A DNA stretch of 40,771 nucleotides. Source: Escherichia phage BUCT789. Every line of letters begins with the position of its first letter. The first letter of the stretch is position 1. The position numbers were made by a program, and so were the translations under genes. The DNA lies in sequence record PQ999132.1; one strand, 5' to 3'. Positions 271 through 38,508 of the stretch are shown piece by piece. The notes under the pieces are model-generated. The model had not been told where the DNA came from, made no database searches, and worked only from the letters and a program-made list of their open reading frames with translations.

Positions 271-299
271 ACTATAATAGCGAACTATTCACTTGTCAA
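271..299 (-). promoter_or_regulatory. sigma70-like promoter, TTGACA-N17-TATAGT (read on minus strand), for the leftward replication operon
   Basis: + strand tgtcaa at 294-299 and actata at 271-276 with a 17-nt spacer; same architecture at 34824-34852 and 38480-38508. Confidence 0.5.
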
Positions 300-303
300 T
301 GGG

Positions 304-332
304 CTTTTCTAAAATAATTAATATGGTACTAT
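304..332 (+). promoter_or_regulatory. weak promoter-like element, TACTAT -10 with poor -35, upstream of the HTH gene
   Basis: TACTATTCACAT at 327-338 matches the -10 and leader of the TTGCAC-N17-TACTAT family; the -35 (cttttc) is weak. Confidence 0.3.
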
Positions 333-363
333 TCACATATCAACTGACTAAGGAGTAATTGAC

Positions 364-579
364 ATGCAACCATCTGAACTAGGCATCCGTGTAGAACAGC
401 GCCGTAAAGAACTCGGTATTTCTCAGCGCCGTCTGGCTGTCCTGACCGGCGTTTCCCAGGGTGCAATTAACCAGCTTGCACTCGGGGTAACGCGGGACGT
501 CCGCCCAGCAACGCTGTTTAAACTGGCGGAAGTGCTAGAGGTAGACGCCAAGTGGCTGGCGTTCGGTGAAGGGGCTTAA
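364..579 (+). CDS. XRE-family helix-turn-helix transcriptional regulator (Cro/CI-like)
   Basis: 71 aa; RBS AAGGAG; HTH signature LGISQRRLAVLTGVSQGAINQL; divergent from the leftward operon. Confidence 0.8.
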   Translation: MQPSELGIRVEQRRKELGISQRRLAVLTGVSQGAINQLALGVTRDVRPATLFKLAEVLEVDAKWLAFGEGA

Positions 580-2913: not shown

Positions 2914-3147
2914 TTATTCCAGGTCTTCTAAAGTAGCGGTCATTCCGCGAACTTCAGCAACAGCACTATATTTCCCGCCAACATTCTTCACGACACCGGA
3001 TTTAACCAGTACCTTCAACGACCCTTCAATAATGGCGGAACTATAGTACCTAAAATAACTACGGCGCAAGTCCATAACGCTGCACGACCCTTTTTTACGG
3101 GTTAATGAAACGACTGCCGTAAATACGCGGGACTGGAACTCGGTCAT
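2914..3147 (-). CDS. hypothetical protein (77 aa)
   Basis: ORF overlaps the upstream gene stop by 4 nt (coupled); C-terminus LEDLE. Confidence 0.55.
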   Translation of the reverse strand: MTEFQSRVFTAVVSLTRKKGSCSVMDLRRSYFRYYSSAIIEGSLKVLVKSGVVKNVGGKYSAVAEVRGMTATLEDLE

Positions 3148-3347
3148 TTTACATTCTCCTTAATCCACGCTTCCACTTTCTCCGGGTCGAAAGTACCCGG
3201 CTGCCGGCGGCCCATAATACGGATACAACAATCCGGGAACTTCCCACTCTTTAACCAGTTATTCAGCGTGCGACGGGTAACCCCGATACGCTCGGCTACT
3301 TCATTCTGTGTCATTCTCAAATCCCCATTATCAGTTAACGAAAACAA
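3144..3347 (-). CDS. AlpA/excisionase-like HTH DNA-binding protein
   Basis: Motif MTQNEVAERIGVTRRTLNNWLKSGKFP; start may instead be the internal ATG at 3314, which has a GGGGA RBS. Confidence 0.65.
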   Translation of the reverse strand: MFSLTDNGDLRMTQNEVAERIGVTRRTLNNWLKSGKFPDCCIRIMGRRQPGTFDPEKVEAWIKENVK

Positions 3348-3748
3348 GTATACATTGCGAATAATGGGAAATCAAACATAATCGCACCTATTGACATTAT
3401 GAAAATCTTCGTTTAAGGTGCTTCTGTATCTTAGTTACTTTGATTCTTGTTCACCTTGTAAAACCCGCCGAAAACGAGCGCCCAACGCGAAGTGTTAGGC
3501 GGCAGTTTACTGAACATTCGAATTATCGTAACTTTCCTTCCTAAGTATCTCCGGTTGCCCTGGGCAAGCTCTATTCTCATCGACGGCATATCTCTTAAGT
3601 ATCTGATTTTCTTAATGTGCCGTAGATTCGCAACCGTAAAAATGTAACGATTAGTGGGCAGGCTTAAGGCCTGCCCTTTAGTTACCAAGTAATAAGAATA
3701 AAGGCACAACCCTCACTAAAGAACCACAACGGCAACGTAACTTTTCTC

Positions 3749-3777
3749 TTGCACACCCCAACATAATAGGATACTAT
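3749..3777 (+). promoter_or_regulatory. promoter, TTGCAC-N17-TACTAT with conserved spacer ATAATAGG
   Basis: TTGCAC 3749-3754, TACTAT 3772-3777; conserved leader TTATCGAAACGAG then RBS GAGGAG; near-identical copies at 5188-5216 and 22864-22892. Confidence 0.55.
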
Positions 3778-3811
3778 TCACTTATCGAAACGAGACAGAG
3801 GAGTGAGGGTT

Positions 3812-4003
3812 ATGTTTAAACGTGGTCAGTTGGCTAAAACGAAGCGAGGCGAACAGTACGTAATAGTGTTGCAGGACGAGAACGAGTATGACGAGGATAA
3901 GCTGGTTGACGTATGGGGTCTGGTAAGAAAGAAACCCGGGTTCGCCTTACGCGATAATCTGAAACTCATCGGCAACAATTTTAAATTCAAAGGGGTGAAG
4001 TGA
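3812..4003 (+). CDS. hypothetical protein
   Basis: ATG 3812 with GAGGAG RBS; track ORF 3803..4003 uses an upstream GTG. Confidence 0.6.
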   Translation: MFKRGQLAKTKRGEQYVIVLQDENEYDEDKLVDVWGLVRKKPGFALRDNLKLIGNNFKFKGVK

Positions 4004-4257
4004 TGGAAGAATTAATTTGTATTGAATCCAGCCAGGATGTGCAGGATTGGTTTGTTAAAGGTAACAGATATTCGTCCGGAGTATATTCCGACGGCCGTCG
4101 ATATGTTTTAGACGAAGACGGTGATGAATGGGATTTAAATGACGATGTAAGAGAAACTTTAACCGTTAGCAGGGTCAATGCTGTTTCTGCCTCATTCACA
4201 ACGGCATCGAATCATGATGCTCGTGCCGACGACTCTGAGGGAGGTTGCCGTGAATAA
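4003..4257 (+). CDS. acidic hypothetical protein
   Basis: ATG overlaps the upstream stop (TGATG); D/E-rich product. Confidence 0.6.
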   Translation: MEELICIESSQDVQDWFVKGNRYSSGVYSDGRRYVLDEDGDEWDLNDDVRETLTVSRVNAVSASFTTASNHDARADDSEGGCRE

Positions 4258-4305
4258 TTACCCGTTTATTTTAATAGTCAGCGCCGTTTATGTGGTGCAT
4301 GCGTT

Positions 4306-4539
4306 ATGGGGGCCGGTATGAGAAAACACATAATAAAGGTAGACCATCTGGACGGAGTTAAATTGCCGACGAATAAAGTAGAAACGTGGTGTGGGGCCAC
4401 TCCATCGTACGGTGAATGGCTGTTCCAGGATGCTCAACACGCCTTAATTGCTGTAGAAAACGGATTCAGGCAAGAGCCTTGCGCACAGTGTTTATCCGCT
4501 ATCGCCCAGATCGCAACTCAGGCGTTAAGTGAGGACTAA
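4306..4539 (+). CDS. hypothetical protein
   Basis: 77-aa ORF; alternative ATG at 4318. Confidence 0.55.
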   Translation: MGAGMRKHIIKVDHLDGVKLPTNKVETWCGATPSYGEWLFQDAQHALIAVENGFRQEPCAQCLSAIAQIATQALSED

Positions 4540-4542
4540 GTT

Positions 4543-4686
4543 ATGAGAGAAGCATTCGAACGGTGGGCCGTCGTCGAGGGTCTGCCGGTTAACAAGGGTT
4601 CGAAGAAAGAGTACCTGAACGTTAAGACGCGTCTCGCGTGGCGGGCGTGGAAAGCTGGTGTGTTGTTTATCGCGAATCGGAGGTGA
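4543..4686 (+). CDS. small hypothetical protein (47 aa)
   Basis: ATG 4543 with GAGGA RBS; fills the gap between flanking genes; stop 3 nt before the next ATG. Confidence 0.4.
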   Translation: MREAFERWAVVEGLPVNKGSKKEYLNVKTRLAWRAWKAGVLFIANRR

Positions 4687-4689
4687 TTT

Positions 4690-4875
4690 ATGGGTGAGTG
4701 GATTAAGTGTAGTGAGCGGATGCCTGAGCCTTATGAATACGTTCTTGTAACTGATTGTTTTGTTGGCTGTGAGGTTATGCGTGTTAATTCAGATGGCTAC
4801 TGGGGGCCTGCAAAGAGTTTATATCACGGTGATATAACGCACTGGATGCCGTTACCTGAGCCGCCGGAGGTGTGA
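4690..4875 (+). CDS. DUF551-like small phage protein
   Basis: 61 aa with EW...PE...VLV...HWMPLPEPPE pattern recalled for DUF551; not verified by search. Confidence 0.55.
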   Translation: MGEWIKCSERMPEPYEYVLVTDCFVGCEVMRVNSDGYWGPAKSLYHGDITHWMPLPEPPEV

Positions 4876-5009
4876 TGTTCAATAGTTTGGGATTTTACTG
4901 AGTGACTTACGCTGCTACACAGCAGCGTACAACTTTAGATTAGTGTCGTCAAAAAGCGACACTTTCACCAAACGCAACAATAGAAGCGACTATTGCAGGA
5001 GATGCAACA

Positions 5010-5180
5010 ATGAAACTGAATGACATCGTAACCTGGACTGGTAGAAACGGAGAAAAGCGATTCGGGCTTATTGTTGCGTCAGACGGCAACAAGTACCGTG
5101 TTATGCGATGGCGTCAGTGGGCACGACGCCCGAGGTACTACTGGATTCGTGGCGAACGATTATCTTTAAAACACCAATAA
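5010..5180 (+). CDS. small hypothetical protein (56 aa)
   Basis: ATG 5010 preceded by AGGAG; lies upstream of the 5188 promoter copy. Confidence 0.45.
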   Translation: MKLNDIVTWTGRNGEKRFGLIVASDGNKYRVMRWRQWARRPRYYWIRGERLSLKHQ

Positions 5181-5187
5181 AATTTAC

Positions 5188-5216
5188 TTGCACACACAGA
5201 TATAATAGACTACTAT
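5188..5216 (+). promoter_or_regulatory. promoter, TTGCAC-N17-TACTAT (second copy)
   Basis: TTGCAC 5188-5193, TACTAT 5211-5216; same spacer core and TTATCGAAACGAG leader as 3749-3777. Confidence 0.55.
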
Positions 5217-5245
5217 TCAGTTATCGAAACGAGAGGAGAGAGAAG

Positions 5246-5383
5246 ATGGGCTGGTACGGTAGCTGGGCATTAGGTGAACTGGTAGACGCTTACGAAATAA
5301 TGGGTAGCACTTCGGTATGCGACGGTGACACTAAATCGCTGCTAGTCGGGGTCGATGAGAAAAGGGGTGAAGACGATGAATAA
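5246..5383 (+). CDS. small hypothetical protein (45 aa)
   Basis: ATG 5246 after RBS GAGAGGAGAG; the upstream part of track ORF 5108..5383 is promoter sequence. Confidence 0.45.
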   Translation: MGWYGSWALGELVDAYEIMGSTSVCDGDTKSLLVGVDEKRGEDDE

Positions 5384-5531
5384 TTTCGTGGTGCAAGCAA
5401 TGTACGCTGAGGAAATGGCAAAAAGTATGTTAGAGCAAACATTACATTTCGCTAAGCTGCAAGGGTTCGACGTACAGACAGTAGGCGACGAAATAGTATT
5501 GACCGAGAAGTCGGAGAACGGCGATGAGTAA
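5376..5531 (+). CDS. small hypothetical protein (51 aa)
   Basis: ATG 5376 with AAGGGG RBS; overlaps neighbours at both ends. Confidence 0.4.
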   Translation: MNNFVVQAMYAEEMAKSMLEQTLHFAKLQGFDVQTVGDEIVLTEKSENGDE

Positions 5532-5883
5532 CAATGACGCAGTAATCGAGTTCCTGTTTAACCAACTACAGCAGCAGCTAACGAACAACCCATACAAGCA
5601 ACAGTGTGAAGACCTGGCGCATGAGGTGCAGTCACTTAAGAATCAGTTACGCGATATGTCGGAGCTGGTGGATGCGCTACCGGGGACGATAACGTTAATG
5701 AACGGGAAATCTAGTTGCCGTAAAGAAGACGCGCAGGAATGCGAGCATGATTGGTTGCATAGTAAACACAAAAGCGGCTTCGTTTGCTTTAAGTGTGGGG
5801 CGCGCGAAGAGTGTGAACACGATTGGTACTTTTACGATAAAGGCGCGTCGATGATGTGCAAGAAATGCGGGCTGAAGAAATGA
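5524..5883 (+). CDS. zinc-ribbon protein with two CEHDW...CxKCG units
   Basis: 119 aa; ECEHDW...CFKCG and ECEHDW...CKKCG repeats; paralogous unit in 8369..8608. Confidence 0.65.
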   Translation: MSNNDAVIEFLFNQLQQQLTNNPYKQQCEDLAHEVQSLKNQLRDMSELVDALPGTITLMNGKSSCRKEDAQECEHDWLHSKHKSGFVCFKCGAREECEHDWYFYDKGASMMCKKCGLKK

Positions 5884-6083
5884 CCAGCATCCTCTTTATC
5901 TGGGTACTGTCCGCAGGCCAGATGCAACTGGCGGCAGCAGAAACGTTTTATTCGATGGAGGCGTGCCAGTCAGCGGCACGCGCCGCAGAGAACGCGCACT
6001 TCCTGTTTCAGGGCGACAAGCCCAACGATTCAGAGGTACGCGCTATCTGCTCACCTAAGCGACTTGGTAAACAGGAGAGATAA
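5880..6083 (+). CDS. small protein with N-terminal hydrophobic segment
   Basis: ATG 5880 overlaps upstream stop (ATGA); N-terminus MTSILFIWVLSAG. Confidence 0.5.
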   Translation: MTSILFIWVLSAGQMQLAAAETFYSMEACQSAARAAENAHFLFQGDKPNDSEVRAICSPKRLGKQER

Positions 6084-6376
6084 TGTCTCTTGCAACTGAC
6101 ATCCTGAAACGAAGCGGCCTTGCGCCGCTGTCACCGAGAGCGAAGACACGTATACACAAGCGTCGCCGTAACGTGCTGTACCCAGAGATACAAGAACGGC
6201 GTAAAGCTATCCGCGCCTGTGGATTCCAGAACGGAAAGGCCGTGAATCTCGGTGAGTTTAAAACACAGGAACGCGCAGCTATCGCTAATCGGCTATTTAA
6301 TTACTGGAAATCGCTGGGGTACGATGATATTCCGACGAAACCGCAGAGACGGCAATACATCTGGAGACACAAATAA
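6083..6376 (+). CDS. basic hypothetical protein (97 aa)
   Basis: ORF directly after the previous stop; K/R-rich. Confidence 0.55.
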   Translation: MSLATDILKRSGLAPLSPRAKTRIHKRRRNVLYPEIQERRKAIRACGFQNGKAVNLGEFKTQERAAIANRLFNYWKSLGYDDIPTKPQRRQYIWRHK

Positions 6377-6385
6377 ACCGTTATT

Positions 6386-6446
6386 AGGATAATTCCTACC
6401 CGTGGTATCCTCCAGTTACTGCATACTTAATACGCACCTGGAGGAT
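6386..6446 (+). promoter_or_regulatory. alternative RNA hairpins over the holin ribosome-binding site
   Basis: Perfect 9-bp inverted repeat atcctccag (6407-6415) / ctggaggat (6438-6446), the latter containing the holin SD; competing aggata (6386-6391) / tatcct (6406-6411) pairing. Confidence 0.45.
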
Positions 6447-6451
6447 TCATC

Positions 6452-6760
6452 TTGGATAAATTTACTGAAACAGTGACGGGCTGGCTTCTCGCTGCCGCAC
6501 TCGCCGGAGGGGTCATCGGACTACGACAACATAAGTCCGTTATTTCTGGCCCTATCGACGGCTTCTGCTTCATCGCTACTGGTTTCGCCTGCGCCGTATT
6601 TGGCGCCCCTCTTGCAGCTCAATGGTTCGGTATCACGGGCGACCGTGAAATCGCTGGCCTGGGCTTTATCATCGCTATTCTCTGGATGCCTATTTATTCC
6701 CGTCTCTCCGGTATTGTTGCCGGAGAATACATCTCACGTCGAGGAGGCCCGGATGAATGA
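6452..6760 (+). CDS. holin (class I-like, three predicted TMDs)
   Basis: TTG start 7 nt after GGAGGA; three hydrophobic segments; directly upstream of the endolysin. Confidence 0.65.
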   Translation: MDKFTETVTGWLLAAALAGGVIGLRQHKSVISGPIDGFCFIATGFACAVFGAPLAAQWFGITGDREIAGLGFIIAILWMPIYSRLSGIVAGEYISRRGGPDE

Positions 6761-7025
6761 GTTATTCTGGTTCGGCGGTATGCTGGCAATAGGGGGTACA
6801 TCGCTGTTTAATGTGTATCACCCCAGCGTTGACGATGGGCTATTTGGTCGTGTGCTCTATATCCTGACAGCTATCGTCTGCGCCGCCGGGTGTATCCACC
6901 TGTTACAGGGCAGCATGTCGCCCACGTTGCCTGAGACATTAATCACATTAGTTGCACTGCGCCAGATTCGCCAGGCGTGGCTGTCATATGGAGGACATAA
7001 GCGTGTCTCGAAACATTTCAGATAA
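6753..7025 (+). CDS. small membrane protein (second holin or antiholin candidate)
   Basis: ATG 6753 overlaps the holin stop (ATGAATGA); two hydrophobic segments; part of track ORF 6600..7025. Confidence 0.5.
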   Translation: MNELFWFGGMLAIGGTSLFNVYHPSVDDGLFGRVLYILTAIVCAAGCIHLLQGSMSPTLPETLITLVALRQIRQAWLSYGGHKRVSKHFR

Positions 7026-7488
7026 TGGATTGCATTTTACCGCTGCGTTCGAGGGATTCCGCGGAACTGCGTATCGTGCTACGCCTAACGAGAAGTACCT
7101 TACTATAGGCTACGGGCACTATGGGCCTGACGTAACCCCGGGTAAGACCATCACACCGGGACAGGGCTTGCTGTTACTGAATCGCGATATGGCTAAGGCT
7201 GTAGCTGCTGTTGACGCAGCAGCACACCATTCACTGACACAGGCACAGTTCGATGCAGTGTGCGACCTGGTATATAACGCAGGTGCTGGTGTGATTGGGG
7301 TTACTACCGGAACCGGTAAGGCGCTACATAGCGGTGATATTTCGACGCTGCGGGCTAAACTGGCGCTGTTCATCAACCAGAACGGCAAACCGTTACTCGG
7401 CCTGCGTCGCCGTACCGCAGGCCGCCTGGCGCTGTTCGATGGCAAGCCGTGGCAAGAGGCTGAGGCTATCGGGAGGGCTGTTAAATGA
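6988..7488 (+). CDS. endolysin, GH24 lysozyme-like muramidase
   Basis: FEGFRGTAYR...LTIGYGH matches the T4/lambda lysozyme catalytic region; no N-terminal signal-anchor. Confidence 0.8.
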   Translation: MEDISVSRNISDNGLHFTAAFEGFRGTAYRATPNEKYLTIGYGHYGPDVTPGKTITPGQGLLLLNRDMAKAVAAVDAAAHHSLTQAQFDAVCDLVYNAGAGVIGVTTGTGKALHSGDISTLRAKLALFINQNGKPLLGLRRRTAGRLALFDGKPWQEAEAIGRAVK

Positions 7489-7615
7489 TGGACGAATATG
7501 AAGGCGTTTAGTAAACTTATCCCTACGCTGTTTGTGCTTGCATACTAAGCCCCGGTAAACCCGAAGCAGCAGCCCAAGCGGTGGAGACTGCGTAGGGTTC
7601 AGGGGCTTATGACCG

Positions 7616-7645
7616 AAACCCGGACCGCGAATCCGGGTTTTATTT
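7616..7645 (+). terminator. rho-independent terminator
   Basis: cccgg/ccggg stem followed by ttttatttt. Confidence 0.6.
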
Positions 7646-7651
7646 TACCAA

Positions 7652-7680
7652 TTGACACCTAAGACTAATCCGACGATACT
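7652..7680 (+). promoter_or_regulatory. sigma70-like promoter, TTGACA-N17-GATACT
   Basis: TTGACA 7652-7657, 17-nt spacer, GATACT 7675-7680; only about 45 nt upstream of a terminator. Confidence 0.4.
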
Positions 7681-7686
7681 TAAATC

Positions 7687-7750
7687 ACCTCCTGTTCCAT
7701 CCCTCTGCTCTCCAGTTTTATCCCGGCCCTGACCCAGCCGGGATTTTTTT
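7687..7750 (+). ncRNA. candidate small RNA (about 60-65 nt) between promoter and terminator
   Basis: No ORF; contains AUCACCUCCU resembling the 16S rRNA 3' end, then terminator hairpin. Confidence 0.3.
7720..7750 (+). terminator. rho-independent terminator
   Basis: atcccggc/gccgggat stem followed by a 7-T tract. Confidence 0.65.
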
Positions 7751-7772
7751 ATCTGTTTTCCACAATGACTAG

Positions 7773-7801
7773 TTGACTATTACCATCGACCCTATTATAT
7801 T
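7773..7801 (+). promoter_or_regulatory. sigma70-like promoter, TTGACT-N17-TATATT
   Basis: TTGACT 7773-7778, exact 17-nt spacer, TATATT 7796-7801; drives the 7835-9589 small-gene block. Confidence 0.55.
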
Positions 7802-7834
7802 TACTCCATCGACAACGAGAACGGAGTATAGAAG

Positions 7835-7984
7835 ATGAAAATCACAGATATCGAAGCATTCAAAGACGCACAACTGATGGCACGTATCGCCGTTAGTAAC
7901 CTTAGTAGCAGTATCCCCGCTGACGCGTTCTGGTTCGCAGCGATGCAGACCCTGAAAGCAGCTTATGCAGGAGAGAAGAAATGA
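7835..7984 (+). CDS. small hypothetical protein (49 aa)
   Basis: ATG 7835 after GGAG; ends GEKK with GGAGAGAAGAAATGA junction into the next gene. Confidence 0.45.
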   Translation: MKITDIEAFKDAQLMARIAVSNLSSSIPADAFWFAAMQTLKAAYAGEKK

Positions 7985-8133
7985 GCGAACAAGGTCAGGT
8001 AAGCCAACCGTTACGAGTAGGCCGTAAAGTCAGTCACACCCCGTTCCCTACACGCGAGGAACTGATGAAACGTAACAGTTTCCCTGGGCCGGACAAGAAC
8101 AAGTATCTCAATCGCATGTGGGGAGAGAAGAAA
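7981..8133 (+). CDS. small hypothetical protein (50 aa)
   Basis: ATGA-coupled to neighbours; the same GGAGAGAAGAAATGA junction recurs at its 3' end. Confidence 0.45.
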
Positions 8134-8369
8134 TGACTGACCGTGAATACGAAAAGATGATGGTAGAGGCTGTTAACGGCGGCATAGACATCAGCCACGT
8201 GATGCACGTCCTGAATACTAAAATCGCTGTAGCGGAGCAAATGGTTGAGTCGCTTTATGAGACGCGCCGTGAACTGATTAACCGCTTCAACCTGAACAAA
8301 CCTGCTCCTACTAACGACGATTTTGATGGCGATTACAGAAATGGTGATTTTTATGAGGGAGCAGAATAA
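8130..8369 (+). CDS. acidic hypothetical protein
   Basis: ATG 8130; track ORF 8118..8369 starts at an upstream non-ATG codon. Confidence 0.55.
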   Translation, partial: EMTDREYEKMMVEAVNGGIDISHVMHVLNTKIAVAEQMVESLYETRRELINRFNLNKPAPTNDDFDGDYRNGDFYEGAE

Positions 8370-8608
8370 TGCCTAAAATCACAATCGCATCACTCGAGCG
8401 TCGTATTCTGGTGCTTGAGTCAGAGAAACAGACGTTAGGCGGGCAACTGTCAATTAATGGTGAGTTTCAACTGGAGGCGTTTAAGTTGTTGCTTGATAAG
8501 TTGAAAGCGGACGAAAAGCCTTGCGAGCACGATTACTACCTACATGTGGTTGGTGGATTACATCGGGCCACGTGCATCAAATGCGGTAAAGCGTATGGAG
8601 TCGCCTAA
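8369..8608 (+). CDS. zinc-ribbon protein (CEHDY...CIKCG), paralog of 5524..5883
   Basis: 79 aa; N-terminal coiled-coil-like region then PCEHDYY...CIKCGK. Confidence 0.6.
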   Translation: MPKITIASLERRILVLESEKQTLGGQLSINGEFQLEAFKLLLDKLKADEKPCEHDYYLHVVGGLHRATCIKCGKAYGVA

Positions 8609-8777
8609 GCCGGTAGTTATTGAGGGCGTCCTGTGGAAACCTTACTCGGTTAACCACATCGACGCCGACGGGAAGAAGTTCAGCTTCTACATTTTTGCAA
8701 TTAGCCGGGAGCACGCCGCTTGTGTGGTAGACGATATACGAGAAACGGCGTGGCTTGGTGATGAGATAGTGGGGTGA
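8595..8777 (+). CDS. hypothetical protein
   Basis: Likely ATG at 8595 inside track ORF 8544..8777; overlaps the upstream stop. Confidence 0.45.
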   Translation: MESPKPVVIEGVLWKPYSVNHIDADGKKFSFYIFAISREHAACVVDDIRETAWLGDEIVG

Positions 8778-8781
8778 GGGT

Positions 8782-9063
8782 ATGGCGCGTACTGTTTCCG
8801 CGAGATTCACTGATATTGAATCTGCGATAGAAGAAGCCGTTTACAGTAGATTCTGTAACCCATCTGCGGTGCATAACTACGGGGTTATCATTAAATACGG
8901 CAAGTTTGAAATCAGGAGAGTGCGCGCCGGTCGTCCGCACGAGTTTTTATGGACTACAGAAAGCCTCATCCCTCGATGTCACGTTTACACAAGCGGTGCA
9001 CATACTATTTTTGTAGGCCTGGACAAGAAAGATATTACTGTCACTAAAGGAGAGACAAATTGA
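8782..9063 (+). CDS. hypothetical protein (93 aa)
   Basis: ORF with GGTGAGGG RBS-like sequence upstream. Confidence 0.55.
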   Translation: MARTVSARFTDIESAIEEAVYSRFCNPSAVHNYGVIIKYGKFEIRRVRAGRPHEFLWTTESLIPRCHVYTSGAHTIFVGLDKKDITVTKGETN

Positions 9064-13116: not shown

Positions 13117-13136
13117 AGCCCCGAAAGGGGCTTTCT
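13117..13136 (+). terminator. intra-operon hairpin (attenuator-like) after the portal gene
   Basis: gcccc-gaaa-ggggc followed by tttctt. Confidence 0.4.
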
Positions 13137-13142
13137 TATAGT

Positions 13143-14219
13143 ATGCTATTAACTTTAGCGCCACAGGGTTTATCTATGAGCTTACTTACATCACTAATCA
13201 GCCACCAGATATGGCTGCAACGCACCGCTTCCGGTGAGGTGAAAGACCTCGCGCCGTTCATTCAGGAAATGCGGGACGAAATCAAACGGCAGGTTCTGCT
13301 ATTCGGCGACGACGGGCGAAGCACTGCGCGACTGAATAGACTGTTACGCGACCTCGAAGAAGCACTGGCAGGACTTACAGGCGACTGGCAAACAAAGCTG
13401 ACAGAAGACCTTAAGGCGCTGGCGGCGTATGAGGCTGAGTGGAACGTAAAAACGCTGACGGCTAACGTTAACGCTGAATTTGTTACACCTACCGCCGAGC
13501 AGGTGTGGTCCGCTGCCGAGTTTCAGCCATTATCATTAAGTGATAAGCCGGTTGACTTCACTAAGCTGATGGATGGCTGGGGTGAAACAGAAGTATCGCG
13601 CCTGGTAACCGGCGTTAAGATGGGCTTTGTACAAGGCCAGACAACACGGCAGATTGTTAAGAATGTCGTTGGCGCTGGTGGGCTGGCGGACATCTCTGAG
13701 CGTAACGCGGCTACGGTAATCCGCACTGCGCTGTCTCACGTATCCAACGAAGCCCGTAACGAGACGTACCGCCAGAACGACGACATCATCGAGAAGTACG
13801 AGTGGGTGTCGACGCTGGACAGCCGTACCAGTACGATTTGCAGGGCCAGAGACGGAATGACGTGGGAAATCGGTAAAGGGCCAATGCCCCCCGCCCATCC
13901 GAACTGCCGGTCGTGTACGGCTCCGGTAATAAGTTCCGAGTTCGACTTCCTCGATAAAGGAGCGAAACGCGCGGCTAAGGGTGCAGAAGGAGGAACTCAG
14001 GTAAGCGCGGACACAACCTATTACGAGTTCCTCAGACAACAACCGGCGTGGTTTCAGGACCAGGCGCTCGGCCCTGTTCGCGGTAAGATTTTCCGTAACA
14101 GCGGTATATCGCCGGAAGAGTTTCGCGTAATATCTGTAGATGGTTTCGGGAATCCGCTCACGCTTAAGCAGATGGCGGAACTCGATAAACGTGTTGCTGA
14201 TTATCTGAAAGGGGATTAA
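13143..14219 (+). CDS. head morphogenesis protein (Mu F / SPP1 gp7-like minor head protein)
   Basis: 358 aa; conserved-looking region CRARDGMTWEIGKGPMPPAHPNCRSC; position after portal. Confidence 0.75.
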   Translation: MLLTLAPQGLSMSLLTSLISHQIWLQRTASGEVKDLAPFIQEMRDEIKRQVLLFGDDGRSTARLNRLLRDLEEALAGLTGDWQTKLTEDLKALAAYEAEWNVKTLTANVNAEFVTPTAEQVWSAAEFQPLSLSDKPVDFTKLMDGWGETEVSRLVTGVKMGFVQGQTTRQIVKNVVGAGGLADISERNAATVIRTALSHVSNEARNETYRQNDDIIEKYEWVSTLDSRTSTICRARDGMTWEIGKGPMPPAHPNCRSCTAPVISSEFDFLDKGAKRAAKGAEGGTQVSADTTYYEFLRQQPAWFQDQALGPVRGKIFRNSGISPEEFRVISVDGFGNPLTLKQMAELDKRVADYLKGD

Positions 14220-14686: not shown

Positions 14687-14705
14687 GCCCCGAAAGGGGC
14701 TTTTT
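14687..14705 (+). terminator. rho-independent terminator
   Basis: gcccc-gaaa-ggggc followed by ttttt. Confidence 0.65.
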
Positions 14706-14755
14706 AGCGCCTGCGATTATTCCAGTTATTCCACCGAATTGTAAATGTTGGAATA

Positions 14756-14771
14756 AACTATTCGAATAGTT
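14756..14771. promoter_or_regulatory. perfect 16-bp palindrome AACTATTCGAATAGTT overlapping a -35 element (operator candidate)
   Basis: Exact inverted repeat; shares the ACTATTC core found at the TACTAT promoters. Confidence 0.45.
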
Positions 14772-14798
14772 GACTTTTCACTGAAAATGTGCTAAGCT
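14770..14798 (+). promoter_or_regulatory. sigma70-like promoter, TTGACT-N17-TAAGCT
   Basis: TTGACT 14770-14775, 17-nt spacer, TAAGCT 14793-14798. Confidence 0.45.
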
Positions 14799-14804
14799 CC
14801 ACCT

Positions 14805-15005
14805 GAGCTTGTGAAGTATGAACAAGCGACCGCGGCGCGGGCAGGTAACGGAGCGGGACGTAAGTCCTGAGTGTAGTTACGCTGACGCGTTCGGAAGGGC
14901 CATACTCTATTGCTTGTGTAAAAAGTAACTGGTTTACTGAGATTACGCCGTTTCTATGTTTAAATGATAAGGACTAGCGCCCCGCTTTATGGCGGGGCTT
15001 TACTT
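14805..15005 (+). ncRNA. candidate non-coding RNA (about 200 nt) between promoter and terminator
   Basis: Only a 36-codon ORF without convincing RBS; GC-rich self-complementary stretches; ends in terminator hairpin 14979-15005. Confidence 0.3.
14979..15005 (+). terminator. terminator-like hairpin
   Basis: gccccgc-tttatg-gcggggc followed by tttactt. Confidence 0.45.
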
Positions 15006-15022
15006 ATCGAGAAAGGAGAAAC

Positions 15023-15409
15023 ATGAATCTTAAAGCAACTGTCGTAGCAGGAGCATGTTTCATCATCCTGTTATACACGCACGGCTACTATCAATACCGC
15101 AGCGGCTGGAACGGAGGCAGGGCTAATCTAGTTTCGCAGCAACAGCAGAAAGCACAGGCTGAGTTAGCGAAGAAAACACAACGGCAGCAGCAGGACGAAT
15201 CAAAGGCCGCCGCCGCTGACAGCGAAGGCAAGACGAAATCAGAGGTGATTACCCGTGAAGTCGTTAAGTACATTAAAACGCCTGGCCGCAGCGTGTGCAC
15301 TTTCGACGATGCTCGCGTCCTGCTCAAGTCCCGCGCCGTCGCAAACGCCAATTCCATCCCCGGATACGACGATGATGCAGCCGCCATGCAAACTGGCCGC
15401 GCCAAGTAG
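15023..15409 (+). CDS. Rz: Rz-like i-spanin
   Basis: 128 aa; AAGGAG RBS; N-terminal TMD then Q/A/K-rich coiled-coil region; contains the Rz1 gene in the +1 frame. Confidence 0.75.
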   Translation: MNLKATVVAGACFIILLYTHGYYQYRSGWNGGRANLVSQQQQKAQAELAKKTQRQQQDESKAAAADSEGKTKSEVITREVVKYIKTPGRSVCTFDDARVLLKSRAVANANSIPGYDDDAAAMQTGRAK

Positions 15410-21093: not shown

Positions 21094-21316
21094 CAATGTT
21101 ACTCCGGTACTCCCGTAACTTCTCCAGGCTTTCAATTGCTTCCGCTAAGTCGGTTCCGGTGTCCTTATGCCCGCGAAGACCCATGCACAATAACTTCTTC
21201 AATGCGTGCTGTAGTGCGGGGTCACGGATGTCGAAGGCACGGAGAACATCGTAAACGTCTACGGTCATAGTGCTGCCGTGAGTGTTTGTCATTGTTCGGT
21301 TGTATTTTGAAGTCAT
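21086..21316 (-). CDS. hypothetical protein (76 aa, accessory cassette)
   Basis: ATGA-coupled to the phosphoesterase gene stop. Confidence 0.5.
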   Translation of the reverse strand: MTSKYNRTMTNTHGSTMTVDVYDVLRAFDIRDPALQHALKKLLCMGLRGHKDTGTDLAEAIESLEKLREYRSNIDE

Positions 21317-22443
21317 CCCAGCATCTCCGGTGAAATAGTTAAACGTGCGACCTCGCCATATTCGGCGCTATAAGTAATTACATTTGCACTACGGCCTGAC
21401 ATCCACCCGCCGCGGGAGGCATAGGCGTCTTTAGCCGCTAAGGTGCGGTGTTGCTCAACAATCATGTTACGGCTTTCTACAATCTTCTGGTGGTGCAGGT
21501 GGCCTACGTGGGCGTAGCTATAGACACTCTCACCGAACGCTTTGCGGAATTTGGCAATCATAACCGGTTCGATAGCATCGAATCGCGCCTTATGCCCGTG
21601 GTGAAAGAACAACGTCGTTTTTCCGTGTTGCACCATCTTGTAAACATCCGGCGACGTATCGACGAACACACGCGGCTCATTATCGTATAGCGTGCTGAAC
21701 ATCTCAGCCAACCAAATCATGCCACTCTCGTCGTGGTTCCCTTGCACAATAAGCAAGCGAACATTTTTATGCTTAACCAGCGCCATATCGACAACACGGC
21801 GGACCATGCGAATCATGTAGCGGACAAGTTTCTGGTAACGGGTGTCGGCGTCAAGGGCGTGACCGCTTGCAGGTGTAACGGCAACCAGACTATCAAAGTG
21901 TGCAAGGTCGCCCAGCAGGTTAATAACCCCTGTTCCAGCATCTGGCGCTTTCTGGAACGCAGCGTCGAACCATCGAGAGAACAGGTCTTCTGCAATCTTC
22001 ATGTCCCAGTCGTCGCCGCTCTCGTCAGCCCATGCCAGCATACCGAGATGGAAATCAGATACCGTGTAAAGATTGAGTAGTTTATCGTCCCGTTTGGCCC
22101 GGATCGCTTTAACAGGCGCGACCGGGGTAATCTCCAACTTCATGCCTTCGATTATGGCTTTCATTAACTCGACCTGACGTTCTGCGTCTGTGTCGGTCTT
22201 AACCCATTGCAACTTGGTGTTGCCAAACTCGTCCACCAGCGACGATGTGCCTTTAATCTTGTAGCCATCTGGTACAAGGTGGCTAACGTCACGCCCGTGG
22301 CCTACACCTTTCTTAGCCAGCTTCGCTTTACGGATACGAATAACTCGGTCTGAGATGCCGTATTTACGGGCGATGTCTACATTCTTCATCCCGGCGTTCA
22401 ATTCTTCCTGTAACTGTTCGTCGGTTATTTTCTTCTGGGCCAT
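21313..22443 (-). CDS. calcineurin-like metallophosphoesterase with N-terminal HTH domain
   Basis: 376 aa; HTH-like DIARKYGISDRVIRI; phosphoesterase motifs DFH, GDLAHFD, GNHDE, HHGH in order. Confidence 0.75.
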   Translation of the reverse strand: MAQKKITDEQLQEELNAGMKNVDIARKYGISDRVIRIRKAKLAKKGVGHGRDVSHLVPDGYKIKGTSSLVDEFGNTKLQWVKTDTDAERQVELMKAIIEGMKLEITPVAPVKAIRAKRDDKLLNLYTVSDFHLGMLAWADESGDDWDMKIAEDLFSRWFDAAFQKAPDAGTGVINLLGDLAHFDSLVAVTPASGHALDADTRYQKLVRYMIRMVRRVVDMALVKHKNVRLLIVQGNHDESGMIWLAEMFSTLYDNEPRVFVDTSPDVYKMVQHGKTTLFFHHGHKARFDAIEPVMIAKFRKAFGESVYSYAHVGHLHHQKIVESRNMIVEQHRTLAAKDAYASRGGWMSGRSANVITYSAEYGEVARLTISPEMLG

Positions 22444-22835: not shown

Positions 22836-22863
22836 AATTATTTCCTCAGTAAGTTACATGTGA

Positions 22864-22892
22864 ATAGTACCCTATTATATTGGGGTGTGCAA
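22864..22892 (-). promoter_or_regulatory. promoter, TTGCAC-N17-TACTAT (minus strand), for the accessory cassette
   Basis: Reverse complement reads cTTGCACaccccaatataatagggTACTATtcacatg, near-identical to 3749-3777. Confidence 0.55.
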
Positions 22893-22999
22893 GTAGTGTG
22901 CTAGAATAAGTTTGCGCCTAGTGTCGCACACGAAAAGCGGGTGGTTCCCGCCTGGCGCATTAACCATAACCAGTAACCTCTTAACCAAAGGACTAAAGA

Positions 23000-23416
23000 A
23001 TGAAACTTTCTGATTTCTATTTTGCCGACCGCCACGCCGCCGGTACTAAAATGCCTATCCTTCTGCCCAGTGGTAAAGATTCCGGTGAATGGTTGCAGGT
23101 CATCGGCCCCGATTGTGACGCTGGTGTTCGTGCGGGCCGTGCCTACACAACGGCAATTCGACGCCTTACGGAAGAACTTGCGCCATTAGATAAAGAGTGC
23201 GAGGCGCTGAATAACTGGGCGCGCTATAATGATGAGAAGGGCTGGCGGGTGATGGACCTGAACAAGCAGCTTGCCGTGGAAATCGTCACCGGTTGGTCAT
23301 TCGACGAACCATTCAGCAAAGAGGCGCTTGCTAACCTGTTCGACCAGTACAGTGGGTTGGCAGAGGCCGTAGTTAAGCATCACACCGATAGCCGTGAGAA
23401 ACTCTCGGAAAAGTAA
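23000..23416 (+). CDS. tail assembly chaperone (lambda G-like)
   Basis: 138 aa acidic protein directly upstream of the tape-measure gene. Confidence 0.6.
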   Translation: MKLSDFYFADRHAAGTKMPILLPSGKDSGEWLQVIGPDCDAGVRAGRAYTTAIRRLTEELAPLDKECEALNNWARYNDEKGWRVMDLNKQLAVEIVTGWSFDEPFSKEALANLFDQYSGLAEAVVKHHTDSREKLSEK

Positions 23417-32877: not shown

Positions 32878-34304
32878 TTCTTACCTCGTCTCTTCATGTA
32901 ATTAAGCAACTCTTCCTGTACAGATTTCTTCTCGTCCGTACGCGCGGCAACAACCTCATCCAGCGTGTCTTTGGCAACGATATGATAGAGGAACACTGGG
33001 CGCTCGTGGCCTGCCTGTTTCTGGCGGACCGGGCCTATACGCTCGACAACCTGCAAATAGTGCTCAAGGTTCCAGCCTTGCGAGATGAATGCCAGATGAT
33101 GTCCGCCGTCCTGTAAATTCAAACCATGACCGGCTGACGCAGGGTGGACACATAAGATTTCGATTTCCCCGCGGTTCCACGCTTCCATCTGCTTATTACC
33201 CTTGGCGCCTTTTGCAAACGCCTGTGCCTGCGGGAATCGCTTAAGGATGCGCTCCAGTTCATGCTTAAACTGATAAGCCACAAGCAACGGTGCGCCCTGT
33301 AACTCCTCAACGATAGACTCCAGCGCATCCAGTTTCGTGTCGTGCACTTTCTCCCAGTCTTTGGTTGCCTCACCGTCTGGCCCCGACACATATACGGCAC
33401 CGGAGGCAATCTGCAAACACTTTGACGTCTTCGCCGCCGCGTTAGCCGCTTCAACTTCTCCGCTCTCCAGTTCCGCGAATAACTTCTCCTCCATATCGAT
33501 GTACGCCTGACGCGCCTTCTTCGGCAGGTCGATTTCAACCGGAACAATAATCGGCGCTTCGCAACCGAACCACTCTGCGGCGTCAATAGTGAGACTGATG
33601 TCCTTCATCTTCTGGTGAATTTCATTATCCGCGCCAGGGCGCGCATGATACTCACGCGCCATCGCGGATTTGCCTTTCTGTACCGAGTTAAACCAGCGGT
33701 CGGTGAATGCGGTGTATGAAGAACCGAGCCGCTCGCCCGCGTCGATAAACCAGTTCTGACCCCACAGGTCCTTGAGTCCGTTTGGCGACGGTGTGCCCGT
33801 CAGGTTAATGAAACGCTTAACTTTACCGAACGCAACCTTGCTGAGGGCCTTAGCCCTTTTGCTACCACCTGAACGGCTGCGGAACGATTTCAGCTTCGTG
33901 CTCTCATCAGCAACAATAACCGTAAAAGGCCAGTCGTCTTTGCCGTAGTAGTCAATAAGCCATTCGATAACTTCGTAGTTCGTGCAAACCACGTTAGCAT
34001 CCGACTCCAGCGCCGCGATGCGGCGCTTCTCTGAACCAGTCGCATCGACGACACGCAGACAAGGGAAGTTCCAACGTGCCTGTTCCGCGGGCCACGTACC
34101 TGACGCAACACGTAAAGGGGCAAGAATTAACACTCGGTCGTCGTCATTAAGTTGCCCATTACGGAACAGTCGATTGAGAACCCACAACGTTGACCCCGAC
34201 TTGCCGCTGCCCATCGAAGCCCAAATATTACAGCGAGGGTGCCGCAGCATGAACGAAGTCATGAGCTTTTGGTACTCTCGACGGATAAATTTAGACATAA
34301 TCAA
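32874..34304 (-). CDS. SNF2-family (DEAD-like) helicase/ATPase
   Basis: 476 aa; Walker A GSGKSG, DExx-type VIVADEST, LTGTPSPN (SNF2 motif III), HGLNLQ. Confidence 0.8.
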   Translation of the reverse strand: MIMSKFIRREYQKLMTSFMLRHPRCNIWASMGSGKSGSTLWVLNRLFRNGQLNDDDRVLILAPLRVASGTWPAEQARWNFPCLRVVDATGSEKRRIAALESDANVVCTNYEVIEWLIDYYGKDDWPFTVIVADESTKLKSFRSRSGGSKRAKALSKVAFGKVKRFINLTGTPSPNGLKDLWGQNWFIDAGERLGSSYTAFTDRWFNSVQKGKSAMAREYHARPGADNEIHQKMKDISLTIDAAEWFGCEAPIIVPVEIDLPKKARQAYIDMEEKLFAELESGEVEAANAAAKTSKCLQIASGAVYVSGPDGEATKDWEKVHDTKLDALESIVEELQGAPLLVAYQFKHELERILKRFPQAQAFAKGAKGNKQMEAWNRGEIEILCVHPASAGHGLNLQDGGHHLAFISQGWNLEHYLQVVERIGPVRQKQAGHERPVFLYHIVAKDTLDEVVAARTDEKKSVQEELLNYMKRRGKK

Positions 34305-34495
34305 CCCTTAACGTAGAGCACCAGCTCTTTACGCCCGAACGCCGTAACGTTACCCGTTACATCTTCGATAACCAGTTTACCGTTCGACTCGACGAACACC
34401 GTATCAACGGCAACCGGACGTCGGGTCTTAACGTTGAAAATCATGTCGCCCGGTACGATGTCACGTGCGGGTTTGCGGTCATATTCGTGTTTCAT
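34301..34495 (-). CDS. hypothetical protein (64 aa)
   Basis: Stop overlaps the helicase ATG (ATGA). Confidence 0.5.
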   Translation of the reverse strand: MKHEYDRKPARDIVPGDMIFNVKTRRPVAVDTVFVESNGKLVIEDVTGNVTAFGRKELVLYVKG

Positions 34496-34790: not shown

Positions 34791-35105
34791 TTATAATTCC
34801 TTATATTGTTGGGGTATGTGCTTACTATAATAGTCTGCTATTAGGGTGTCAATCTGTTTTATCGAACCAACGACAAAAACATTTGCGCCACGTTTGCGCA
34901 TCCGCTCATGCTCACGTAGCTGGTGGGGGTCAGGCTTCGTGTTTTCGTCTTTCTTAACCTCGACGAACCAGACGACGCCGCCGGGGAGAATTGCCAGCAG
35001 GTCGGGGGCGCCGGAACGCCCCTCGTAGGAAAGTTTACGAACGAGGCCACCAAGGGCCTCGAATCGCTCCTTTGCATATTTCTGTATTTTGCCTTCCGGG
35101 GTCAT
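34791..35105 (-). CDS. VRR-NUC domain nuclease
   Basis: Motif GAPDLLAILPGGVVWFVEVK; start taken as ATG 35105 overlapping the upstream small ORF stop; track lists TTG 35120. Confidence 0.7.
   Translation of the reverse strand: MTPEGKIQKYAKERFEALGGLVRKLSYEGRSGAPDLLAILPGGVVWFVEVKKDENTKPDPHQLREHERMRKRGANVFVVGSIKQIDTLIADYYSKHIPQQYKEL
34824..34852 (-). promoter_or_regulatory. sigma70-like promoter, TTGACA-N17-TATAGT (minus strand), inside the 3' end of the VRR-NUC gene
   Basis: + strand tgtcaa 34847-34852 and actata 34824-34829, 17-nt spacer. Confidence 0.45.
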
Positions 35106-38479: not shown

Positions 38480-38508
38480 ACTATAATAGTTAGCTATTCA
38501 GGAGTCAA
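38480..38508 (-). promoter_or_regulatory. sigma70-like promoter, TTGACT-N17-TATAGT (minus strand)
   Basis: + strand agtcaa 38503-38508 and actata 38480-38485, 17-nt spacer. Confidence 0.5.

Follow-up and report, generated by a model that had tools for sequence, protein, structure and literature searches.

The closest described parallels to the control elements reported here come from the phages 434 and P22. The 434 operator is 14 bp long and has a 5+4+5 layout, the same geometry as the dyad core described below, and the operators of P22 Cro/C2 span 18 bp. In phage phi29, a single regulator, p4, which is not an XRE protein, acts on several promoters in different registers and activates a late promoter from an upstream position. 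Another relevant precedent is found in T4-like and lambdoid phages, whose promoter-early stem-loop (PeSL) and "moron" cassettes are conserved promoter units, sometimes accompanied by a terminator, that bound variable accessory genes. The motif analyzed here has itself been reported before, at orthologous positions in the Kagunavirus phages fBC-Eco01 (PMC9825357) and VB_EcoS-Golestan (PMC7203180), as conserved or phage promoters predicted by PHIRE, and in the fBC-Eco01 paper it is called a "phage RNAP promoter" (PMC9825357). Both papers give lists of 20-mers, in which neither the dyad nor the sigma70 hexamers are pointed out and no mention is made of the sites facing in different directions (PMC9825357, PMC7203180).

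The window that we analyzed is the whole stretch of 40,771 nucleotides of Escherichia phage BUCT789 (PQ999132.1), a Kagunavirus genome (Guernseyvirinae) with a relative, phage Henuyfy11N, at 98.6% identity. A first-pass annotation had drawn attention to three similar elements with -35 TTGCAC, a 17-bp spacer and -10 TACTAT, and all three are located where it placed them. They share the 32-bp pattern TTGCACAC-N6-ATAATAG-N2-TACTATTCA, in which 24 bases are specified and which is matched exactly at 3749-3780 (+), 5188-5219 (+) and 22892-22861 (-). Scanning the whole genome with up to three mismatches allowed yielded no fourth match. By the annotation's own standard, a similar frequency in shuffled sequence would have counted against the family; the pattern is found in 0 of 100 dinucleotide-preserving shuffles. 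The two hexamers and their spacing are present in all three copies (7 of the 12 sigma70 consensus positions), each of which has a Shine-Dalgarno sequence and a start codon downstream (ATG at 3812, 5246 and, on the minus strand, 22835), and the leader TTATCGAAACGAG is, as had been claimed, identical between copies 1 and 2. The spacer core that was said to be shared by all, CCCAA-ATAATAGG, is present in copies 1 and 3 only, copy 2 reading ACAGATATAATAGAC. The published PHIRE consensus, tgAATAGTa-ccTATTat-T, is the reverse complement of ATAATAGG-TACTATTCA. By their hexamers and spacing, the three elements read as genuine host-type (sigma70) promoters of a lytic E. coli phage.

The conserved core of the three copies is an 18-bp dyad, ATAATAG-N4-CTATTCA, with AATAG-N4-CTATT as its inner core. 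Searched with up to three mismatches, the 18-mer has eight matches in the genome against 0.27 expected, and when all 5-mer dyads with spacers of 0-10 are counted without bias, AATAG-N4-CTATT ranks first (six exact occurrences against 0.03 expected), above the terminator hairpins. Six further sites, at 274, 318, 7766, 14763, 34827 and 38483, are promoter-like as well; the first-pass family of three, exact as its copies are, was thus drawn too narrowly and the dyad was missed. In all, the dyad family comprises about nine promoters of three architectural classes, which differ in the position of the dyad relative to the predicted start, and the hexamers and 17-bp spacing of classes A, B and C make them sigma70-like promoters.

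The class A dyad has its centre near -12.5, the -10 element being part of its right half-site. Promoter A1 (3749..3811, +) has its -35 TTGCAC at 3749-3754, the dyad at 3763-3780 and the -10 TACTAT at 3772-3777, inside the right half-site; its leader, TTATCGAAACGAG...GGAG, extends to the ATG at 3812, and a terminator is located 73 bp upstream of the promoter. A T3-promoter-like 14-mer at 3708-3721, which at first hinted at a T7-like phage, is present in a single copy, is missing even from the 98.6% identical relative and was rejected as a chance match. In A2 (5188..5245, +), the -35 lies at 5188-5193, the dyad at 5202-5219 and the -10 at 5211-5216, and in A3 (22836..22892, -) the corresponding positions are 22892-22887, 22878-22861 and 22869-22864, the leaders running to the respective start codons. 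A3 is the head of a minus-strand accessory cassette (22835-20920) that lies within the tail gene block. A class A-like site, TTAATATGGTACTATTCA (318..335, +), is found upstream of the regulator gene discussed below; it has a weak left half-site, which is still more degenerate in Jerseyvirus, and its -10 TACTAT (327-332) is preceded by TGg, giving an extended -10.

The dyad of class B is centred near -18.5, within the spacer, and has the opposite orientation to that of class A. The class consists of B1 (271..299, -; TTGACA-17-TATAGT, 11/12 sigma70 positions; dyad 274-291), B2 (34824..34852, -; TTGACA-17-TATAGT, 11/12; dyad 34827-34844) and B3 (38480..38508, -; TTGACT-17-TATAGT, 10/12; dyad 38483-38500). 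These are the three sequences in the genome that come closest to the sigma70 consensus, and each has the dyad in its spacer. B1, whose leader contains AAACGAGAGGAG, drives the leftward replication and recombination operon.

In class C (TTGACT-17-TATATT), the dyad is centred near -33.5 and covers the -35, an overlap that is seen at two sites (7766 and 14763). The dyad of C1 (7766..7801, +), TGACTAGTTGACTATTAC at 7766-7783, has one core mismatch and contains the -35 TTGACT (7773-7778), with the -10 TATATT following at 7796-7801; the leader ATCGACAACGAGAACGGAG extends to a start codon (ATG, 7835), genes for the terminase and the head lie downstream, and the site is kept in both Kagunavirus and Jerseyvirus. 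The class C-like promoter C2 (14763..14798, +) has a dyad-like sequence, CGAATAGTTGACTTTTCA, at 14763-14780, again with one core mismatch and with a -35 TTGACT (14770-14775) inside it, and an extended -10, TGcTAAGCT (14790-14798). A candidate sRNA at 14806-15006 folds mildly better than shuffles (z = -1.9), and Rfam has no match anywhere in the window. A possible further site, CTTATAGTATGCTATTAA (13135..13152, +), with one core mismatch, directly follows a terminator and runs across the start codon annotated at 13143, with no convincing promoter alongside; its ortholog is included in the PHIRE listing for phage Golestan (PMC7203180).

We read the promoters of classes A to C as sigma70 promoters equipped with an 18-bp operator, most likely one for the 434-Cro-like protein encoded at 364-579, and we would give this reading a probability of roughly 0.6. 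It has to be weighed against the published interpretation, according to which the motif is the promoter for a phage-encoded or phage-modified RNA polymerase. The motif was reported seven times each in fBC-Eco01 (PMC9825357) and Golestan (PMC7203180), which speaks for such a promoter. However, (i) the annotation of the 98.6% identical genome contains no RNA polymerase gene, and a scan of 10 large ORFs gave no match to an RNA polymerase family, although three of these ORFs (among them the 774-aa and 875-aa ones of the tail module) matched nothing in Pfam; (ii) all sites are embedded in sigma70-like hexamers with a 17-bp spacing; and (iii) relative to these hexamers, the motif is placed in three registers and may face either way. 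We consider a dedicated polymerase extremely improbable. For the same reasons (sigma70-like hexamers and spacing, no recognisable phage RNA polymerase, no single orientation), the phage-specific promoter class that the first-pass annotation had offered as one option is not sustained. Its other option, an added regulator-binding site, is supported by the recurrence of the 18-bp dyad in other promoters, where its register differs and, in class B, its orientation is reversed.

The dyad is conserved among relatives. Exact copies number six to eight in six Kagunavirus genomes and three to five in four Jerseyvirus genomes, against about 0.03 in shuffles, and there are none in two Cornellvirus-type genomes or in the Klebsiella phage klb_E. 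Among distinct sites selected for the exact 5+5 core (24 from Kagunavirus and nine from Jerseyvirus), two flanking positions per half-site are strongly conserved. In a footprint-like pattern, the central N4 varies, whereas the arms are invariant across the two genera, and N4 changes between unchanged arms even where class B sites are orthologous. All Kagunavirus sites have CTATTCA as their right half-site and all Jerseyvirus sites CTATTA(A/T/C), and the Kagunavirus sites are consistently asymmetric, with ATAATAG on the left versus TGAATAG, the reverse complement of the right half. One Jerseyvirus site adds a fourth register, that of a symmetric divergent promoter pair. The exact 18-mer in IMG/VR viral contigs gave mostly single chance matches together with Kagunavirus-sized contigs, and revealed no new lineage.

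The class A units also behave as mosaic elements. In a comparison of homology breakpoints covering seven genomes, the stretch containing A2 (5169-5248) aligns with BEU33 and BEU35 as an isolated homology island, its immediate flanks being unaligned. The interval 22860-23021 is another island, the homology of the same two genomes resuming exactly at 22860, at A3. At A1, homology with Jerseyvirus K55 stops at 3790, and that with BEU33 and LM08P2 begins at 3715. Promoter-leader cassettes appear to be retained as homology islands at places where the genes beside them have been exchanged, and the breakpoints suggest that recombination takes place at the promoter units. The likeness of A1 to A3, which encompasses the -35, the spacer and the leader through the start codon, may reflect the common descent of a portable promoter-operator-leader cassette that would head variable accessory gene blocks. 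The link to the accessory cassette made in the first-pass annotation holds: copy 3 drives 22835-20920 (-), and promoter-leader islands survive at mosaic junctions. Like PeSL and moron units, the BUCT789 promoter units appear to be homology islands at exchanged genes, with a terminator near A1 and an opposite-strand cassette headed by A3; unlike them, the cassette would also comprise an operator and a leader conserved through the start codon.

The behaviour of the promoter-leader units as recombination islands raises the question of whether any trans-acting factor is needed, since a single promoter cassette might have been copied and inverted, with the palindrome consisting merely of AT-rich, -10-like hexamers that serve both directions. 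Class A opposite strands do have promoter-like hexamers in the class B register (TCGATA-17-TATGTT at A1, and a possible promoter, GTTACA-17-TATATT, at 22853-22881 at A3), the TATCGA of the class A leader occupies the exact position of the class B opposite-strand -35, TGTCAA, and the symmetric divergent pair of Jerseyvirus would also suit such an origin. Against this, the dyad alone is common to class A and classes B and C, and at orthologous sites of the two genera the arms are fixed even though the N4 and the flanking bases have diverged freely. Moreover, the class A left arm and both class B arms belong to the spacer, a region that sigma70 does not contact in a base-specific manner, and hence promoter function alone does not explain the invariance of the arms. 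Nor would it be expected from paralogy that the outer position switches together at all sites of a genus. We regard paralogy as an unlikely explanation for the dyad, and favour an operator that is recognized in trans.

The protein most likely to recognize this operator is the 71-aa XRE/HTH_3 protein encoded at 364..579 (+), which the first-pass annotation had already singled out as a candidate regulator and which is borne out as such by its likeness to 434 Cro and by the two dyad sites that adjoin its gene. It matches Pfam HTH_3 with 49 bits (cut-off 23) and is similar to 434 Cro over its full length (phmmer E = 1.7e-6), and the top Foldseek match of its AlphaFold2 model (pLDDT 81) is 2cro (TM 0.74-0.80); 434 Cro, of the same size (71 aa) and the same fold, is thus its best relative both by sequence and by structure. 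The two dyad sites, 274-291 (exact) and 318-335, lie 44 bp apart in the 123-bp divergent region beside the gene, as is the case for 434, where the sites are in a divergent promoter region next to the regulator gene. The operator also resembles those of 434 and P22 in having a 5+4+5 core within an 18-bp conserved unit that overlaps core promoter elements. The half-site AATAG and the recognition helix SQGAINQ differ from those of 434. This helix is SQSLITH in Jerseyvirus, a change that parallels that in the right half-site. The homologue in klb_E provides a positive control: it has a 434-like helix, KQQTIQQ, and 434-type operators (ACAA-N6-TTGT) are present directly upstream of its gene. A coarse and loosely annotated RNA-seq time course of a Kagunavirus distinguished four early genes, the sole annotated one of which codes for an HTH domain (PMC12645636).

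A second small DNA-binding protein of the phage, HTH_17 (excisionase/MerR-like; Pfam 31 bits, cut-off 27), encoded at 3314-3144 (-) at the head of the helicase-primase operon, could instead be the one to which the dyad belongs. The exact dyad and this protein have the same distribution: 442 Kagunavirus and Jerseyvirus records contain the protein, which was found nowhere else when sought outside these genera and is absent, as is the dyad, from the Cornellvirus-type genomes and klb_E. In addition, it is 84-89% identical between the two genera, which fits the unchanged AATAG core better than does the XRE protein, whose identity is only 49%. However, no dyad is found near the promoter of the HTH_17 gene itself (TTGATT-17-TATACT, 3375-3347), the classic autoregulatory arrangement belonging to the XRE gene. 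Proteins of the HTH_17/excisionase type usually act on direct repeats or as monomers, targets that are unlike a 14-18-bp palindrome. There are also weak signs that a related element persists in Cornellvirus, which lacks the HTH_17 protein: the variant A[AT]TAC-N4-CTAAT has five matches against 2.3 expected, an excess that is not statistically significant alone, and a de novo search for repeated 14-mers in the Cornellvirus HTH control region gave nothing clear. Taken together, we find it rather improbable that HTH_17 is the binder.

The identical core in phages of two host genera could also point to a protein of E. coli or Salmonella that is exploited by the phage. Some host operators have 5-bp arms and a 4-bp spacer, such as the trp operator, ACTAG-N4-CTAGT, and one half of the class C dyads contains CTAG. 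We know of no host factor, though, with the consensus AATAG-N4-CTATT, and a host factor would leave unexplained the genus-specific change at the outer positions, the clustering of sites beside a phage HTH gene and the absence of the dyad from the related Cornellvirus-type phages of Salmonella. This makes a host protein a very unlikely candidate.

Returning to the 434-Cro-like protein, we infer from the sequences that the dyad is bound, that this protein is the binder and that the effect is repression. The operator would be bound by a dimer of the 71-aa HTH protein, and the bound operator would occlude RNA polymerase, as should be the case given that the site overlaps a core promoter element in every class. 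Transcription would then be turned down as the protein accumulates, and the regulator would also autoregulate its own divergent control region. As with phi29 p4, several promoters would be under one small DNA-binding protein of the phage, whose effect would depend on where its site lies; unlike for p4, only repression is expected, because every dyad site overlaps core elements. The asymmetry of the Kagunavirus sites and the degenerate left half of the site before the regulator's own gene speak against the model, as does the AATAG core, which is unchanged despite the 49% identity of the XRE protein between the two genera. It should be noted that nearly all recognisable promoters, including C1, carry the dyad, and a simple "early shut-off" model is therefore incomplete.

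The circuit differs from that of 434 in other respects. Published descriptions call these phages lytic, and the annotation of the 98.6% identical relative includes no CI-like repressor, integrase or immunity region. Together with the fact that the genes divergent from 364-579 belong to the replication and recombination operon, this suggests a Cro-like mode of working rather than a lambdoid immunity switch. Furthermore, the operators are not clustered as in OL and OR of 434, but spread over about nine promoters around the genome. A putative operator combined with a Cro-like repressor is most likely an ordinary kind of control circuit that does not represent a new class of mechanism.

In a wider view, which we put forward tentatively and consider doubtful in its full extent, a single operator used in three or four registers, in one of which the same six base pairs form both the -10 and a half-operator, would put nearly all transcription units of a strictly lytic siphophage under one 434-Cro-like protein, and a portable cassette of about 60 bp would place new accessory genes under the temporal programme across Kagunavirus and Jerseyvirus. 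The label of "phage RNA polymerase promoters", which is spreading in genome papers on therapeutic-candidate phages, is better read as host-type promoters with an operator. The present analysis offers a concrete and cheaply testable regulatory model for the Guernseyvirinae, a group that comprises many phages of E. coli and Salmonella and whose programme of transcription has hardly been studied. If this model is true, the operator and its 71-aa regulator would constitute a compact, orthogonal repressor-promoter set, and the cassette structure would explain how these phages swap accessory genes without loss of regulation.

A scan of the window for the composite pattern TTGCACAC-N6-ATAATAG-N2-TACTATTCA returned exact matches at 3749-3780 (+), 5188-5219 (+) and 22892-22861 (-), and no others even when up to three mismatches were allowed. 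None of 100 shuffled sequences contained a match, which confirms the three near-identical elements of the first-pass annotation. These copies, the class A promoters A1, A2 and A3, all contain TTGCAC-17-TACTAT, and downstream of each come a ribosome-binding site rich in purines and then an ATG (at 3812, 5246 and, on the minus strand, 22835, respectively). The identical leader attributed to two of them is indeed present in A1 and A2, as TTATCGAAACGAG, whereas the spacer core 'CCCAA', thought to be common to all three, is shared by A1 and A3 but not by A2.

In the window, ATAATAG-N2-TACTATTCA alone has 8 matches with up to three mismatches, against 0.27 expected, and the sites share the core AATAG-N4-CTATT of an 18-bp dyad. 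This core tops a census of all 5-mer inverted repeats in the window (every 5-mer, spacers of 0-10), with 6 exact copies against 0.03 expected. Exact copies number 6-8 in six Kagunavirus genomes, 3-5 in four Jerseyvirus genomes, 0 in two Cornellvirus-type genomes and Klebsiella phage klb_E, and about 0.03 in shuffles. In class A (dyads at 3763, 5202 and 22878 (minus strand), and a weaker one at 318), the dyad is centred at about -12.5 in the order -35, N8, dyad, and its right half-site plus two spacer bases forms the -10 TACTAT. In class B (B1, B2 and B3; dyads at 274, 34827 and 38483; centre about -18.5), it lies, inverted with respect to class A, within the spacer of minus-strand TTGACA/TTGACT-17-TATAGT promoters, which are the three best sigma70 matches of the genome (11/12, 11/12 and 10/12 positions). 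In class C (C1 and C2; dyads at 7766 and 14763; centre about -33.5), N4 is TTGA, hence the -35 TTGACT falls inside the dyad, and each site has one core mismatch. A fourth register occurs at a Jerseyvirus site, where one dyad is common to a symmetric divergent promoter pair. Since the sequence is kept while its position and orientation change relative to the hexamers contacted by the polymerase, the dyad does not belong to the promoter itself.

By gene order, the window corresponds to a circular permutation of the 41.1-kb genome of Escherichia phage Henuyfy11N. Its 3000-9000 segment is 98.6% identical to that phage and matches 439 phage records, nearly all of them Kagunavirus or Jerseyvirus (subfamily Guernseyvirinae). 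The replication and recombination genes occupy the minus strand, and the small early-type, lysis, packaging, head and tail genes the plus strand, with the accessory cassette (22835-20920, minus strand) inside the tail block. The 91-aa 'lactocepin' of Henuyfy11N (window 5108-5383 (+)) has its annotated start upstream of A2. Judging by the ribosome-binding site and the in-frame ATG at 5246, the true gene appears to be 5246-5383 (+), encoding 45 aa. In the same record, several further product names, including 'glycoprotein precursor' and 'cell division protein', look unreliable. Integrase, CI-type repressor and RNA polymerase are all absent from its annotation, and none of the 10 large ORFs scanned matches an RNA polymerase family, three of them being without any Pfam match. 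Of the two explanations initially offered for the shared elements, a regulator-binding site is supported by sequence and comparative evidence; a phage-specific promoter class is not supported, given that no RNA polymerase was recognised, the hexamers are of the sigma70 type and the orientation is mixed.

The motif itself has already been published. The genome paper of fBC-Eco01 reports the PHIRE consensus tgAATAGTa-ccTATTat-T at seven sites, labelled phage RNA polymerase promoters (PMC9825357), and that of Golestan reports seven 'conserved promoter sequences', also based on PHIRE (PMC7203180). Both papers leave unremarked the dyad and its mixed orientation, the sigma70 hexamers and the adjacent Cro-like gene. 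No experimental work on the motif was found in the literature searched.

Among 24 distinct Kagunavirus and 9 distinct Jerseyvirus sites, all chosen because their 5+5 core is exact, the two positions flanking each half-site are strongly conserved, in contrast to the variable central four bases. Orthologous class B sites have constant arms and a changing N4, which at B3 is TTAG, CTAA or AGTA. The outer right-half position is genus-specific at all sites (Kagunavirus CTATTCA, Jerseyvirus CTATTA(A/T/C)), a switch suggesting co-evolution with a trans-acting reader. A possible variant element was seen at promoter-like sites of Cornellvirus-type genomes, with counts that are not significant.

Gene 364-579 (+) is separated from the leftward replication operon by a divergent region of 123 bp, in which the sites 274-291 and 318-335 are found. 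The 71-aa product of this gene, the XRE protein, matches Pfam HTH_3 (49 bits; cut-off 23). Among PDB sequences it is closest to phage 434 Cro, likewise of 71 aa (E = 1.7e-6, full length), and 434 Cro is again the top Foldseek match (TM 0.74-0.80) of the AlphaFold2 model of the XRE protein (single-sequence, pLDDT 81, five helices). The 434 operators are 14 bp long with a 5+4+5 layout, which is that of the dyad core. XRE homologues and their likely sites vary together: the recognition helix SQGAINQ accompanies CTATTCA-type dyads in Kagunavirus, SQSLITH accompanies CTATTA-type dyads in Jerseyvirus (49% identical), and the 434-like KQQTIQQ of klb_E (44% identical) accompanies a pair of 434-type operators, ACAA-N6-TTGT, placed immediately before its gene. 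The homologues of Cornellvirus-type genomes are 41-43% identical. The klb_E operators, ACAAGGTTATTTGT and ACAAACTTGTTTGT, lie at 34284-34324, a segment that looks like a 434-like control region within an otherwise unrelated phage; a third 434-type operator is located at 35673. In the 2004-era record of Salmonella phage SS3e, the XRE gene (about 21300-21340) appears frameshifted, probably through a sequencing error, since other Jerseyviruses have an identical downstream frame. A Kagunavirus RNA-seq study reported four early genes, the sole annotated one being an HTH-domain gene (PMC12645636).

The dyad might instead be read by a second small DNA-binding protein, the HTH_17 protein (3314-3144, minus strand), which is 84-89% identical between Kagunavirus and Jerseyvirus and confined to these genera, a distribution that fits the exact dyad as well as that of the XRE protein does. 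However, the dyad is absent near the HTH_17 gene's own promoter, palindromes are generally not typical targets of this family, and it is the XRE gene that has the classic autoregulatory arrangement. We therefore regard HTH_17 as the less likely binder and the XRE protein as clearly the more likely one.

Comparison with relatives suggests that the promoter-leader unit behaves as a module, which would explain why A1, A2 and A3 are so similar. The segment from A2 through the start codon (5169-5248) is an isolated homology island in BEU33 and BEU35, and homology with both restarts exactly at 22860 (A3), the first gene of the cassette being replaced. Homology with LM08P2 and BEU33 starts at 3715, and that with Jerseyvirus K55 stops at 3790, where the A1 leader ends. 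Ahead of the genes downstream of B1 and C1, and of the gene at 15023, related leaders (AAACGAGAGGAG, ATCGACAACGAGAACGGAG and TTATCGAGAAAGGAG) are found as well, which makes the 'leader' a shared translation-initiation context, not one specific to class A. The class A TATCGA occupies the place of the opposite-strand -35 of class B, TGTCAA, which may point to a common origin of both classes or to weak divergent promoters. At 22853-22881 (+), a possible promoter, GTTACA-17-TATATT, shares its dyad with A3, in the register of class B, and would restart transcription of the tail genes (23000 onward) past the opposite-strand cassette; in Jerseyvirus, the orthologue (L004 5211-5228) consists of two promoters arranged symmetrically and divergently. 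Other Kagunaviruses have a fourth class A promoter (BEU33 4340-4380 (-), equivalent to window about 14690-14745), with a terminator within about 35 nt and no ORF. The window has just a promoter-like TTTACA-18-AATAAT there, running directly into the terminator 14702-14685, which looks like the vestige of a lost cassette.

A candidate small RNA is located at 14770-15005 (+), where about 200 ORF-free nt separate a good extended -10 promoter (TTGACT-17-TGcTAAGCT) from a strong downstream terminator (14979-14998). It has no Rfam match, and its fold is only mildly better than those of shuffles (z = -1.9). In other Kagunaviruses, a second copy of its 14770-14912 part lies upstream of an A1-type promoter (BEU33 37402-37459; L133 36084-36227). 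At 7652-7750 (+), the promoter TTGACA-17-GATACT has a terminator (7725-7750) about 45 nt further on, shortly before the class C promoter; a very short transcript may be made here, or the region may be regulatory, and the non-coding island 7652-7838 is conserved in both Kagunavirus and Jerseyvirus. The sequence AACCCTCACTAAAG at 3708-3721 (+), 27 bp upstream of A1, shares a 14-nt identity with the core of the T3 RNA polymerase promoter. This is probably due to chance, as it is single-copy and missing even in the 98.6% identical relative.

At every site the dyad overlaps a core element of the promoter, and a bound protein should therefore keep RNA polymerase off. The XRE protein, as the proposed regulator, would be produced early from its own class A-type promoter and would turn down the strong replication promoters of class B, the class A promoters heading the small-gene and accessory blocks and, via 274-291 and possibly 318-335, its own control region, much as Cro does at PL and PR. 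Binding may be weaker at the class C sites, which are imperfect; of these, C1 (7773-7801) is upstream of the block running into the terminase and head genes. We infer both the sign of regulation and any hierarchy of affinities. The proposed system would resemble a Cro-operator circuit in its mode of working, but would differ from the lambdoid immunity switch in lacking a CI partner and in having its sites scattered over the whole genome.
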